A DNA stretch of 64,000 nt from Eledone cirrhosa (lineage: Eukaryota): NCBI GenBank assembly GCA_964016885.1, contig OZ024750.1:24676001-24740000 (forward strand), in the 5' to 3' direction. Below the pieces are notes generated by a model that had not been told where the DNA came from, made no database searches, and was given only the letters and a program-made list of their open reading frames with translations. Made by a program: the position numbers and the translations under genes. Shown here piece by piece: positions 608 through 60,296 of the stretch. Numbering within the stretch: position 1 is the stretch's first letter; each line of letters opens with the position of its first letter.

Positions 608-1024
608 ATAATAAAACACGTTCACTGTTTGGTTTGGATTGGTTTTTCGCTTCTGTATCTTTTATATCTCTATAGCTAATCTAATTTACCTGGTAATCAA
701 TGTTTCTCATTGATTGACCAGCGGTTTAAAATACAGATATAAATAAAAATATAAATATATATCTATATATATATCTATATATATATATATATATATATAT
801 ATATATATATATATATATATATATATATATATATATATATATATATATATATATATATATATATATATATATACATATATATATATATATGCAGAGGTTA
901 TATTTAATTTGTTGGGATTCAACAAGCTTAAAAAAATTTATAACTGATGTAAAGCACTCAACAATTAAGTAGAGTAAATACACAATATATCAATAAATGG
1001 AAACTATATTTATAAAACCATATT

Positions 1025-1090
1025 TATTTTATTATATATATTTCAAGGGCAACCAAGGCAAATTATGGTGCGCTTTCATCAGATAAAATA
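1025..1090 (-). ncRNA. Type I hammerhead ribozyme (family C)
   Basis: Minus strand: UAUUUUAU CUGAUGA AAG...CUU GAAA UAUAUAUA AUAAAAUA; 8-bp stem I, palindromic minimal stem III, AUA cleavage triplet. Confidence 0.8.
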
Positions 1091-1272
1091 TAATTTGCAT
1101 ACTCACTCATAACTTTGTATTACCCTCAATAAAATATTATCTCCACTATCCAGGAAGCTCCAACTGTTAAGGTTGTCTTTTTTTCCGGGTATGTCAATAT
1201 TTATTTATAAAACAAATCTGTATTTTATCTGATGAAAGCGCACCATAATTTGCCTTGGTTGCCCTTGAAATA

Positions 1273-1662
1273 TCTTTATATATATAAAAGCGAGGATGTG
1301 TGTGTGTCTGTGTACAACTTGGCATGCATAAGGCTTTCACAATTACCAACTGAATTTGACCAAATTTTCTGTCCACGTTGTACAGGTCGATAAGATTGTT
1401 ACATCCCAAACATTTTTCAAATCGACCCACGATATCAAAATTATCGGTAGAAAAATTGATGTAAGGGAGATAACAACCTTTATTGACAATCCTTATAAAA
1501 AAGGGAGATAACCTTTTCACCAAATATATTCGTTTGCATTAATTATTGAAGACTTCTGCTTATTTTGACAGGTTGGGGACAAATAATGTTCTTCTTTTAC
1601 TTCCTAGCTGTATATTCTTAGCATAATTTCAAACCCCGAGCAACGCCGGGTAAATCTGCTAG
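1273..1662 (+). mobile_element. Non-autonomous Helitron (~390 bp)
   Basis: Starts TC, ends CTAG, subterminal GC hairpin CCCGAGCAACGCCGGG; inserted between A and T with no TSD; removing it restores GAAATATATATAATAAAATA of the hammerhead. Confidence 0.85.
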
Positions 1663-2049
1663 TATATAATAAAATAAATATGGTTTTATAAATATAGTTT
1701 CCATTTATTAATATATTGTATATATATATATATATATATATATATATATATATATATATATATATATATATATATATTCTATCAAAGTTCTTTTATCACA
1801 CACCTGAGACATCATCAGTAATACTATTATGTTTCATCCCGTTGTATTGTAATGACTACGCTATATATTCCGAAGGAATACAAATCGTTGAGTGCTTTAC
1901 ATCTGTTTGCGAAAAAGATCTAGATTATTTGATCAGCCAACTTCCATCAACTGAATAATAAATATATATATATAACTTCCGGTTATGTCAATCAACCGAA
2001 ATTAACGCACCTAGAACGTTTCTTTAAATAATAACGTTTTATCTTTCTA

Positions 2050-2193
2050 GGCCAGCCGCAGGTGGTAGCCTGGCGAGTTGGAATGGCTCTTCCAGCACAT
2101 CTCCCTTACCATCCTCCGGGGAAACGCCATCTCCATCCTGTCCGCCGGGGCTGTGGGGAGGCCAGCATGTGGGACCCCATTTGCTCACCATAC
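2050..2193. repeat. Unclassified GC-rich dispersed repeat (short copy)
   Basis: Near-identical to 26300-26450; both copies share the ...GGGACCCCATTTGCTCACCATAC end. Confidence 0.7.
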
Positions 2194-3730
2194 GGATTAA
2201 TAGGCAAAGTTATAAACTATTGTTTCCACCGGTTGGAAGTCGGTGTTACATACAAAAGATTATTGAGTGAAATATCCTAGATAAGAGGAAACATATCAAG
2301 CGTTTGTTGTAGTAGTCACACTGCTTTTCTTGTTCCTTTACCACTTACTAAAACGGAGTTGAATTGTTTTGTGGTGGTTCAAATTACATCAGATTTTGGT
2401 TAAACACAACAAACGGAAACCTACATACGATTACGTCATAGTAATATTTCCTCTGGCTCTACATCTGGACATCTGAAGATGAATTTAGACCATTTACTAG
2501 TCGTCCCATTCCGACAATAATCTTAACTATAATAAAGAAAGGAGTGCGGGACTGCGTCCAGAATATATTTTTTTACCCTGTTTGTAAAATAAGTTGGATT
2601 ACTTTGAATAAATAATGAATGAATATTACATAATGTATGCGCTAAATTTCGTGGCTGTTGATTAAATATATTTTATAGCTTATTTAAAGATTCACTTCTT
2701 TAAAATTTTTAAATGTCAACAATTCCGGTTAGCAGCCGTCATATTATAAAAATACCGCATATATTTCCGTCGCTAATTTTCTCCTAATGCAGTTTATATA
2801 AAATATCGTCTTCTTTTAAATGTATCATGGATTACTTTACTGATTACAGAAGACAGTGTAACATAGACTTCGTTCAATTTCTGTGTATATTGTCAATTAC
2901 GATTTCATTTGATGTATCATATCTACATGCATAAATATTTGTGTATAATATCAATATACACACTACACATGCTAGCAGAAAACCACCCGAGAGTAGTTTT
3001 TCTGCTAGTTATGGTAATAACGTTGAACATATTTAATATTTGAAGTCACGTTGCCTTATATTTAAGTTTTACTGAACATTTGAAAACCCTATAAATTAAA
3101 AAAATTGTGTTTTTTTTTTATAAATGGTCTGCATGTTAGAAAACCTATAGTTTATATTGATTGACAAGTAATTTAGGAATAAAAGGATATTTTAATCATT
3201 TAAAAAAAAACAAAAAAAACTTAATCCTTCTATTGGTAATTAGTATGGTACGTGTTTCATGTTTTTCTAGACTCCTTCATCAGTGGCGCATATTGTTGAA
3301 ATATATATTCAGATTTATTTTGTGTTCTGAAGATGAAGTCCGATCATAGTTCGATTTTATTATCACCTGGGCCTATCGATTCAAAAATTGATAGGTTTTG
3401 TTTTTATGGATCGAATTGTGATTTGGCCTTGTAAGCAAATAAAGACTTTTTCAAGAATTTGGTTGTTTATTCTCCCACAAATCAGGGTAGTACTCTACGC
3501 ATGGGAAGAAGCAGAGTGGAGAACTAATTCCGGCCCAAATCCTTTTAGTTGTGGTCATTTCCCGATCCCCATTGGGAATCTAACCTTATCTATATATATA
3601 TATAATTGGTGTGGGATGCTTAAAGCGTCCGTATGCGGTAGGCCGTTTGAGCACTCGATGCTCTTACAGAGCAGAGTATAATATCACATAAGAAACGGAG
3701 AATCAGTGGTGCGACGAATAAAATTTATTA

Positions 3731-57400: not shown

Positions 57401-58507
57401 TGTGTATATATAAGATATATATATATAAGATATATATATATAAAATATATATATATATATATATCTTATATATATATATATATATATATATATATATATA
57501 TATATATATATATATATATATATGGGGGGGGGGCGTGTGTGTGGTTAAATTACCACTGAACATCATTAAGTTGTCTGCTATAGATTATCTGCAATAAAAG
57601 CCGAATAGACTGTGTGTAATAATATTTTATTATGTTTCAAATATTAAACTGTTGCCATAGTAAGAATACGACTTTCTGAAACATAGTCAACTGACAGAAA
57701 TACAGTCTCGTGGGCGGTTTTCTGCTCGTGTGCGTGTAAATGTGATTCGTAATGGGTCTATCTATTAATGTATCCAAATATATAAACCACATTTTTTTAC
57801 AAGCAAATGATATGAGCTCACACAGTCATATTTCGTTTTGTGGTTTATTTTATTAAATACAACGTTTATACAAGCAGTCGAAATGGGGTCCCTCCGAAGG
57901 CTCTTTGAAGTAACGTTACTTGATAGAGTGAATACCTCGGAGATCAGAGAGTCACTCCAGGTAGAGCCGCTACTTCTCCGAATTGAGTGATCACAGCTCC
58001 GATATTATGGGCATGTTGTTAGAATGTCTCAGGAAAGAATCTTAGGAGCGAAACCAACAGATAGGAGACCCAGGAGTAGACCGAACACCCCCCCCCACCC
58101 GCGAGCAAGATGGTTGGATGAAATGCATGAGCTTGGCTGGTAATGCTTTGGAATGGTTGCTTCTGACAGGACCCGCTGGAAGGAGTGTCTGAGGACTCTT
58201 CCCCCCACGACCCTCTCAAGAATAAGTTGGCCACGAAGAAGAAGAAGCAACGTTTATTCTCTTCAAAATGTTTGAGCCGGTTTAACACGACTGCCAGCCT
58301 TTCAGTATAAGCCTTTGAGTCAGGTTTCCGCCCAGAGAATACCTTCCTCCCACCTGTCTCTGAGGCCCTGAAGAGTATCATGGGCGTTGCCAGTTATCTT
58401 CCGATTAAGCCATTTAACTCTTTTCTTATCACGTTTCTAATAAAAGACACTACCGATGATTTTGAAATAATTTCTGAAGTTATCAAGACAGGAATTCTCA
58501 TTATTAA

Positions 58508-58700
58508 AGGCGATGGATTGGCAGTATCGGTAGAGGGTCGGACGCCATGCTTTGACGCATAAAGTTATGGCCCTTTATGGTCTGAGTTCAAATCCCGCCA
58601 AGGTTAACTTTGCCTTTCATCCTGACGGAGTCGATAAAATAAAGTACCAGTAATGCACTGGGTAATTGCTGGCCTTGTGCGAAAAGTAGAAACAATTATT
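58508..58700 (+). mobile_element. SINE family A
   Basis: Homology to other copies. Confidence 0.9.
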
Positions 58701-58710
58701 AAGGGTGTTT

Positions 58711-59720
58711 GGAACATAGCTCAACAAAGATTCTTACACAAAATTCTGATGGAAGGTTTTTAGATAAATATAAACAGCTTTTTATTAGGGGCAGTTTCCG
58801 GTAGTTTCGTATCAAATGATGAAGGTGGCGTGGAGAACATAGCTCAACAAAGATTCTTGCATAAAATTATGATGCAAGATTTTAAAATAAATATAAACAC
58901 CTTAAAATAAACAGCTTTGTATTAGGGGCAGTTTTAGGTAGTTTGGTATCAAATGATAAATGTGGCGTGGAGAACATAGCTCAACAAAGATTCTTGCATA
59001 AAATTATGATGCAAGATTTGAAAATAAATATAAACACCTTAAAATAAACAGCTTTGCATTAGGGCAGTTTGGTATCAAATGATGAAGGTGGCGTGGAGAA
59101 CATAGCTCAACAAAGATTCTTGCATAAAATTATGATGCAAGATTTTTAAATAAATATAAACACTTTAAAATAAACAGCTTTGCATTAGGGGCAGTTTTAG
59201 GTAGTTTGGTATCAAATGATAAAGGTGGCGTGGAGAACATAGCTCAACAAAGATTCTTGCATAAAATTATGATGCAAGATTTGAAAATAAATATAAACAC
59301 CTTAAAATAAACAGCTTTGCATTAGGGCAGTTTTAGGTAGTTTGGTATCAAATGATGAAGGTGGCGTGGAGAACATAGCTCAACAAAGATTCTTGCATAA
59401 AATTATGATGCAAGATTTTTAAATAAATATAAACACTTTAAAATAAACAGCTTTGCATTAGGGGCAGTTTTAGGTAGTTTGGTATCAAATGATAAAGGTG
59501 GCATGGAGAACATAGCTCAACAAAGATTCTTGCATAAAATTATGATGCAAGATTTTAAAATAAATATAAACAATTTAAAATAAACAGCTTTGCATTAGGG
59601 GCAGTTTTAGGTAGTTTGGTATCAAATGATAAAGGTGGCGTGGAGAACATAGCTCAACAAAGATTCTTGCATAAAATTATGATGCAAGATTTTTAAATAA
59701 ATATAAACACTTTAAAACAA
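58711..59720. repeat. ~137-bp tandem satellite, ~7.5 copies
   Basis: Period 58835 to 58972; internal hairpin TCTTGCAT...ATGCAAGA. Confidence 0.95.
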
Positions 59721-60080
59721 CTTTGTACCATAGAACCTGAAATAGTTTCAGGCGGTTTGGTATTAAAAGAATGAAAGAAAAAGAATATTGCAGAATTTTC
59801 TTTCATCTCATCAATGATGTCCATCGGGACTTTTTACTGAAATGAAAGCGTTACGTAACTATTTCCATGTGGAGGTGCAGAGGGGGGGTGTATCACTTTA
59901 GCAGGGTTTTGATTTTGTTGTTTTATTTTGTTTTTTTTTATTGAAAATGTGTTATTTGTGTGTATGACTGGGTGTGAGAGATACGAAAGAGTGTTTGTGT
60001 TATATATATATGTGTTTATATAAATATATATATATATATATATATATATATATATATATATATATATATATATATATATA

Positions 60081-60152
60081 GTTTTAATATAGATGAGATT
60101 CTACAGGACTAGAACTGTTTCATTCTTTAGAAATCATCAGCCCGTAATAACG
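60081..60152. mobile_element. PLE family B remnant (hammerhead lacking 5' stem I on -, fused to tail terminus)
   Basis: Matches 11746-11796 and ends CCCGTAATAACG, like the family B tail end. Confidence 0.75.
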
Positions 60153-60296
60153 TAAATATATATATATATATATATATATATATATATATATATATATATA
60201 TATAACGAAGGAAATGTGGTAAGGAACCAGGTGGACCATAACGCACCAAAGTACTCAATACTTGAGGTAGTAGAGTGGGTAATAGGAACCAGTAAG

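Follow-up and report, generated by a model that had tools for sequence, protein, structure and literature searches.

A paired hairpin at the insertion ends of Hydra-clade Penelope-like elements, a putative docking signal for internal reverse transcription

A 64,000-nucleotide stretch of the Eledone cirrhosa genome (contig OZ024750.1, positions 24,676,001 to 24,740,000 of the forward strand; the whole stretch is called the window here) contains inserted copies of Penelope-like elements (PLEs) with a small bulged hairpin downstream of a hammerhead motif. PLEs are the closest retroelement relatives of telomerase, and the choice of an internal start and the tail on one side of their insertions are a standing question. 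An earlier note on this DNA, made from the sequence alone, had described the hairpin in four families (A to D) and proposed it as a cis-acting RNA element recognised by the reverse transcriptase (RT)-endonuclease of Naiad PLEs. Which elements, then, carry the hairpin, how does it lie with respect to the ends of insertions, and what could it do there?

We find that the hairpin occurs twice in each unit and that insertions end just 5' of one copy or the other. Sequence comparison leads us to favor, with a probability of about 0.65, a reading in which each hairpin putatively docks the element's own RT-endonuclease on the RNA and so fixes an internal start of reverse transcription just 5' of it. 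The proposal of a conserved cis-acting hairpin in PLE terminal repeats is itself supported by the doubling, by covariation and by the positions of the ends.

Hairpin pairs and insertion ends

In its general form the hairpin reads RCUC-stem-loop-stem-UH-GAGY-RCU, and in external loci GCUC-Y...R-UH-GAGC-ACU. The external set comprised 88 related loci from marine metagenome contigs and from contigs inside bacterial bins; a strict descriptor made 91 sense-strand matches across 60 of them, against 0-7 in shuffles. A single hairpin per element tail had been reported, and so much is present, but each unit has two. Such pairs lie between hammerhead and start codon in 39 families (31 external, 8 from this genome), their starts 57-99 nt apart (median 66), with hairpin 2 ending 8-63 nt, mostly 13-27 nt, ahead of the first open ATG. 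Hairpin 2 had gone unseen because it survives only in tandem junctions. Spacers between the two copies are unrelated, 27 of 741 pairs scoring above 30 shuffles, which is about chance.

The seed of a covariance model consisted of 12 copies of equal length, 11 taken from external loci and one from the window, so that matches at those loci are not independent of it. The model found at least one match in 50 of the 55 external loci with at least 150 nt before the open reading frame (ORF), and two in 38. Its matches avoid coding sequence: 9 of 150 fall in protein-matching stretches, which make up 59% of the bases. Some of the loci that it missed have compensated lower stems, GCAC/GUGC (L133, L140) or UCUC/GAGA (L169, L205). 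By eye, the motif is also present in three of six published Hydra consensi, namely Hydra-2_Amil from a coral and Hydra-2_Ajap and Hydra-1_Ajap from a sea cucumber, the last of which carries it twice ahead of its ATG. Separately, a hammerhead family at L328 (-, about 6910) has a GUUC/GAAC hairpin, in which a pair that is invariant elsewhere has changed on both sides with pairing kept.

Ends were mapped by placing (TA)n junctions on intact tandem junctions. Of 2,648 flanks examined 252 were mapped; family 9 was dropped, and 38 flanks in which the alignment stopped more than 6 nt before the (TA)n run were set aside. Two ends emerged per family, each just 5' of a hairpin copy. They lie within 12 nt 5' of a hairpin in 214/237 cases in this genome (8 families) and in 15/15 elsewhere (9 families), where uniform placement would give 10-12% and placement at TAT/ATA sites 24-39%; three family-D ends counted as 'other' are end 2 of a reference that lacks hairpin 2. 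The peaks stand at -4, -6 and -3 from the hairpin, microhomology included, and the junctions share short (TA)n microhomology, most frequently of 3 nt. In family A, a genome-wide count gives 16,931 ends at the hairpin 1 site and 22,183 at that of hairpin 2; an internal CGTTAT identical to end 2, with no hairpin behind it, has 18. The two family-A junctions recur as loose ends in four public contig sets from one study, possibly the same data from which the assembly was built.

In inverted (head-to-head) insertions the arms use different ends, end 1 and end 2, in 54 of 57 cases (family A 30/31, family C 15/16, a third family 9/10); the same count yielded no arm pairs for family B. The large inverted insertion in the window is tailed at 60205 and tailless beyond the right edge. 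It had been observed that the hairpin lies in the long-arm tail of inverted pairs, and this is borne out: the tailless arm stops just before hairpin 1 and the tailed arm contains it, so that only the long arm displays a hairpin. A tie to insertion boundaries is likewise supported, the ends lying 5' of each copy, which had been missed.

A hammerhead family without the motif (L375-L399) also has two ends, so that having two ends does not in general depend on this hairpin. This family forms inverted pairs with two sharp ends, and neither an RCUC/GAGY motif nor an ORF was found in it. A motif at L401, one of 24 matches, is located right after the long end of this motif-less family; we dropped it as a confirmed prediction, as the segment recurs behind different upstream sequence and is probably an insertion into another element. 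Within L401:400-620 three motif-like copies follow in series inside another element's segment, and in a repeat a (TA)n end falls just before the second. Tandem repeats of about 500 bp (L350-L374, e.g. L370), each with a hammerhead motif and without the hairpin, look like a retrozyme of the non-LTR (long terminal repeat) type. The absence of the hairpin from these repeats and from L375-L399 led us to reject a general hammerhead accessory. From these same two comparisons, in which no identified non-Hydra element figured, the signal looks clade-specific.

Pairing, proposed role and alternatives

The pairing was assessed in the 78 paired copies of the 39 families, a set in which CUC/GAG and the bulge U are fixed by the search pattern. 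The first upper pair is Watson-Crick in 76 of 78 copies (52 C-G, 24 U-A; shuffled mean 44), the second in 51 of 78 (22) and the third in 41 of 69 (17.5), and none of 5,000 shuffles attained the observed counts for these three pairs. Hairpin 2 varies less than hairpin 1, with C-G as its first upper pair in 37 of 39 copies. Among 125 distinct model-aligned matches 98% of cells pair, with 151 two-sided changes against 50 in shuffles, in an alignment that was fitted to the structure. That the upper stem changes sequence and keeps pairing had been noted, and this is borne out once the RT tree is allowed for: co-change at the first upper pair holds in 6 of 6 independent pairs (p 0.031), and support extends to the second (median p 0.016, A-U state).

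On the favored reading, the folded strand would be the transcript of a tandem junction. The protein would recognise three parts of the hairpin, its invariant CUC/GAG stem, the bulge that opens with U and the RCU on the 3' side, and the nicked (TA)n target would pair with a UAU 3-7 nt 5' of the stem and prime there. Because priming would occur 5' of the stem, the docking hairpin itself would go uncopied. A start at hairpin 1 would give a tailless end and one at hairpin 2 a tailed end with hairpin 1 included, and use of both sites in one event, one per target strand, would yield an inverted pair with the tail on one side. A further step, programmed twin priming, would place two proteins on the two hairpins of one RNA, each nicking one (TA)n strand and starting cDNA 5' of its own hairpin; we advance this more tentatively, at somewhat less than even odds. 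Were it true, the RNA would set both insertion ends by a portable signal of 20-30 nt outside the copied region, and PLE tails and inverted insertions would be accounted for together. An RT related to telomerase would then take its start site from a signal on the 3' side of the template, and gene insertion by RT would gain a start tag that can be moved. Independently of this step, the hairpin is a 20-30 nt candidate signal with a consensus across 39 families; it predicts a family's insertion ends to the base, the two arms of one insertion use its two copies, and it could explain the tail long noticed on Penelope insertions. Furthermore, the motif offers a simple boundary marker for Hydra elements in repeat libraries.

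Several observations weigh against this reading. The invariance of CUC/GAG and of the bulge U across the 78 copies was built into the search, and among the results listed for the RT tree neither the third pair of hairpin 2 nor the outer lower-stem pair reaches significance, the latter having too few independent changes. By itself the hairpin is weak (median -5.4 kcal/mol), and the fold predicted for family A pairs the two copies with each other. Predicted pairing favors neither strand, being similar on both: the lower stem has P>0.5 as RNA in 23 versus 18 of 39, and as DNA in 22 versus 24 and 18 versus 21. Internal G-U and A-C pairs stand at 6:3 in external loci and at 22:10 in this genome, whose own copies include decay. 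By eye, no motif is present in Hydra-1_Obim and none is clear in Hydra-1_Amil, and that of Hydra-1_Crog is deviant; family B showed no second hairpin in the searches made, and the L375-L399 family has its two ends about 60 nt apart with no motif at all.

Could the hairpin instead act in single-stranded DNA, as cDNA or in an opened duplex, with the GIY-YIG endonuclease cutting at a fixed distance from it during resolution? IS200/IS605 transposases use subterminal DNA hairpins, which provides an analogy. The map of ends would suit a ruler for cutting no less than one for priming, folding with DNA parameters is equal or better on the antisense strand, and at two loci (L400, L401) other elements are joined at a TA just 5' of a motif copy. 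In the accessible text of PMC8557442 the tail is ascribed to 'EN-mediated resolution', EN denoting the endonuclease, and according to the portion of PMC11167929 at hand cutting of plasmid DNA by the D. virilis endonuclease required the tail. The same portion reports, to the contrary, that the RT of PAc starts directly at both tail boundaries in vitro. The (TA)n microhomology of the junctions, moreover, suits pairing of template with primer, and sense-strand G-U pairs exceed A-C by 28 to 13 when pooled, a weak sign. The spacing between the arms, 6 to more than 60 nt, excludes a binding site of fixed spacing in duplex DNA, a reading that we reject, though a DNA hairpin is compatible with it. On balance we hold action in DNA to be unlikely, although it is the main rival.

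A doubtful alternative is that the hairpins mainly control translation, as an operator for the element's own protein or as an aid to initiation on the uncapped RNA left by hammerhead cleavage, and that ends simply follow the position of the protein. The location of hairpin 2, mostly 13-27 nt before the ATG, and its lower variability fit this; taken alone, control of translation leaves unexplained why the ends 5' of the two copies are precise to the base, why they outnumber those at the internal site more than 900-fold and why each arm uses one site. It can, rather, be a second role beside RT docking. Least probable of all, in our estimation, is that nothing but fortuitous pairing between the AU-rich template and (TA)n sets the ends, the hairpin being a general RNA-binding signal or a relic. 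The 12 nt 5' of the motif are indeed AU-rich, with TA in 72 of 75 copies, and the junctions show microhomology. The notion is nonetheless largely refuted by the CGTTAT sequence, which goes with 22,183 ends where hairpin 2 follows and with 18 where no hairpin does, and the nulls at TAT/ATA sites are 24% and 39% where 90% and 100% were observed. In addition, the motif has been kept where spacers cannot be aligned and proteins are about 35-44% identical.

Other identities were rejected on simpler grounds. Protein-coding constraint does not fit, as copy lengths differ by non-multiples of three and matches avoid ORFs. Selenocysteine insertion sequence (SECIS) elements are defined by an AUGA...GA quartet and an in-frame UGA in the ORF; here there is no AUGA on the 5' arm and the family-A ORF is open without UGA. 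Rfam gave no match for the hairpin in the 20 external loci searched of the 88. In the window, the best 150 of 236 Rfam matches were microRNA and small nucleolar RNA models below gathering score at microsatellites or inverted repeats, plus one tRNA.

Carrier elements and known systems

The motifs of the carriers indicate that they are Hydra-clade PLEs and not Naiads. Hydra features given in the available text of PMC8557442 are a C-terminal endonuclease, RWK, DKG changed to DKT, a CxCx5C linker, an endonuclease without a CCHH motif and a hammerhead; Naiads, by the same account, have an N-terminal endonuclease and a DKA motif and lack a canonical hammerhead. We prefer Hydra because the carrier has a C-terminal GIY-YIG-type region, RWR, DKT, CxCx5C and a hammerhead. 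The Naiad identity given in the earlier note is thereby ruled out, since the endonuclease motif is C-terminal, DKT replaces DKA and hammerhead motifs are present. The assignment rests on motifs, the RT tree containing no named references and likeness to published Hydra proteins being judged by eye.

The family-A copy at 60252-60277 terminates a large inverted insertion; the ORF fragment in it is identical to that of a family whose intact copies lie in 3,531-bp tandem units. These units encode a single ORF (716 aa from the first Met), whose modeled fold best matches telomerase RT and other RTs; no Pfam family matched it, and a sequence search of the PDB also returned no match. By inspection of the sequence, a VIY...YIG motif follows the RT, and a single cysteine stands between the IY and YIG parts. 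Family A has RWR and DKT; among the 39 family representatives, several of them fragments, [RK]W[KR] occurs in 34 and DKT in 35. The linker reads CNCPDRSIC in family A, and most external representatives of sufficient length have the same pattern. The carriers also have a hammerhead motif, with predicted cleavage, in the terminal repeat, and (TA)n as insertion target.

Copies of families C and D extend into Hydra-type ORFs about 36-42% identical to that of A, and the eight families of this genome cluster together on the RT tree. For family B, two pattern searches found neither a coding parent nor a true second hairpin; L400 was rejected as its parent, as it looks like B fused to a C-type segment. 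Given its 3,531-bp tandem units with near-identical intact ORFs, family A is apparently active. A search of viral contigs found no relative. A second young Hydra family, 47% identical to A, lies at L120/L121 (G000:C1:254782320-254787700) with a 3' untranslated region (UTR) of more than 1.7 kb; the base of each of its two hairpins is kept, and the loops are replaced by inserts of about 60 nt in the first and more than 80 nt in the second. Hydra elements at L132-L143 occur on contigs of GTDB bacterial bins, probably host DNA binned with symbionts.

A functional parallel, in line with the favored reading, is PAc, a Poseidon-clade element of Anolis and the one element that has been tested in vitro. 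As far as the available part of PMC11167929 goes, reverse transcription of PAc begins at two internal positions in the RNA, one on either side of the tail; the two strands of the target are both cut and then extended, and RNA lying 3' of the start (to +172) proved necessary. PAc resembles the present element in having two internal start sites (here inferred) downstream of the hammerhead that bracket the tail, and an AT-rich target. The PAc start, by contrast, lies in an AC-rich stem-loop inside the ORF of one element, and that part of the paper reports no conserved or repeated binding motif; what we describe is a clade-wide motif, repeated and non-coding, just 3' of each end. Long interspersed element (LINE) and R2 proteins recognise 3'-end stem-loops, cis RNA structures that recruit the element's own RT, stand 5' of a terminal start and are copied. 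The Hydra hairpin differs in lying 3' of an internal start, in occurring in pairs and in that it would not be copied by the docked enzyme.

With the Hydra clade as portrayed in the consulted text of PMC8557442 the carriers share the terminal-repeat hammerhead, (TA)n as target, insertions in both tandem and inverted arrangement and a one-sided tail; that text describes no RNA structure beyond the hammerhead for Hydra. Family A departs from its usual values, with a unit of 3,531 bp rather than less than 3 kb and a tail of about 80 nt rather than 30-40. The minimal type I hammerheads of PLE terminal repeats, to judge from the available text of PMC4209133, occupy the same position in the element and include a palindromic short stem III, as in families C and D, and a U3-A8 core variant, as in family A. 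The hairpin is a separate element, without a catalytic core, on the 3' side of the hammerhead cleavage site.

The Hydra clade, the hammerhead, the tail and internal initiation are already known. In the literature within our scope, which left aside subscription papers, Repbase and Dfam notes and supplementary figures, we found no description of a duplicated hairpin 3' of both PLE ends. The accessible text of PMC8557442 ascribes the tail to resolution by the endonuclease, and that of PMC11167929 gives two starts and narrows the protein-binding region to about 150 nt.

The hairpin and other features in the window

The features on which this account draws are as follows.

60252-60277 (-): hairpin 1 of family A, in the tailed 3' end of an element (Hydra clade, autonomous); intact tandem units carry the identical sequence
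60297-60390 (-): predicted type I hammerhead motif, family A, from sequence; U3-A8 core (UUGAGAA), a variant known from the available text of PMC4209133
60197-60209 (-): tailed end (end 2), junction to (TA)n
60888-62399 (-): left arm of an inverted insertion truncated at its 5' end, with the 3' UTR and the C-terminal portion of the RT-endonuclease ORF (stop 61489-61491)
62489-64000 (+): right arm of the same insertion, continuing beyond the window; tailless end (end 1) just before hairpin 1 (L035)
19486-19511 (+): hairpin 1, family A, long arm of a short inverted pair; short arm stops at 19350-19362 (-)
14612-14637 (+): hairpin 1, additional family-A copy
34171-34196 (+): hairpin 1, additional family-A copy
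34337-34362 (-): hairpin 1, additional family-A copy
19906-19931 (-): hairpin 1, additional family-A copy
13478-13503 (-): hairpin 1, additional family-A copy
12710-12735 (-): hairpin 1, additional family-A copy
17953-17973 (-): hairpin, family B, 5'-truncated copy
33948-33969 (+): hairpin 1, family C; the parent has a Hydra-type ORF with about 40% identity to that of A and carries hairpin 2 ahead of the ATG
33835-33900 (+): hammerhead motif, family C long arm; short arm (33629-33694, -) stops before hairpin 1
29525-29547 (-): hairpin 1, family C relative
955-976 (-): hairpin 1 of a family C relative, with a weak upper stem; its hammerhead motif lies at 1025-1090 (-)
1866-1894 (+): deviant hairpin (AUUC/GAGU), separate family; weakest model match, 10.8 bits, E 1.8
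20597-20618 (+): hairpin, D-type family; hammerhead motif at 20418-20510 (+)
3652-3678 (-): hairpin 1, family D; hammerhead motif 3730-3826 (-); its relative L272 runs on into hairpin 2 and a broken Hydra-type ORF

All nine hairpins first reported are present at their positions and on their strands, and six additional family-A copies accompany them. The reported pattern with three upper-stem pairs occurs at 14 sites in the window, where each of 100 local shuffles gave 0-1. Across the 3.0-Gb genome its exact matches number 160,068, and the reversed pattern yields 38,166. In the tandem units, outside the window, hairpin 2 begins 4 nt past the shared TAT (L031:1369-1392).

Parts of the original description had to be redrawn. 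The 5-bp YACUC/GAGUR lower stem keeps its RCUC/GAGY portion, but the conserved part is 4 bp, the outer Y-R being a C-A mismatch in family A; that spelling, present here, proves to be this genome's variant, in hairpin 1, of the wider GCUC/GAGC form. The UU or UC bulge holds for the reported copies and widens to UH among the 78 (UU 48, UC 17, UA 13). The hairpin at 955-976 is present with only two upper pairs (U-G, A-U). A hammerhead upstream on the same strand is complete for five of the nine copies (60252, 33948, 955, 20597, 3652) and incomplete for the other four: the arm at 19486 has the 3' half only, and the copies at 17953, 29525 and 1866 are 5'-truncated, families B and C having the hammerhead in other copies.

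The families are mostly unalignable, as claimed, but number more than four, and copies of C do align. Among the 45-nt flanks mutual alignment was confined to 33948, 29525 and 955; 1866 aligns with none of these, and the flanks of the two 'D' copies (20597, 3652) do not align with each other. A single cross-family pair, the downstream flanks of B17953 and C33948, exceeded all 300 shuffles, with a low score.

The expected enrichment next to hammerheads was found in 1.19 Mb of unselected DNA, consisting of the window and stretches picked regardless of motif: a full core lies upstream of 16 of 80 motif matches and of none in the mirror control. In the same DNA, (TA)5 occurs 20-80 nt downstream of 69 of the 80 matches versus upstream of 10. 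The last GAAAY of the hammerhead mostly stands 42-72 nt ahead of the hairpin. In the family-A hammerhead at 60297-60390 (-) the predicted stem III loop, UUGAGCUCA, is almost palindromic. In the tail between the two ends, families C and B (33970-34030, +, and 17895-17950, -) can fold another hairpin, unrelated in sequence.

Tandem arrays with units of about 81 bp, each matching the motif pattern, occur at L265-L269 (G000:C8:49738221-49741630) and at 57953-57989 of the window. Further arrays in the window have periods of 29 (58) bp at 6935-8400, 60 bp at 23936-25255 and 37 bp at 41378-42269. Finally, a tRNA-like match of 33.4 bits at 4996-5067 (+) adjoins a (TA)n run and is probably the head of a tRNA-derived short interspersed nuclear element.

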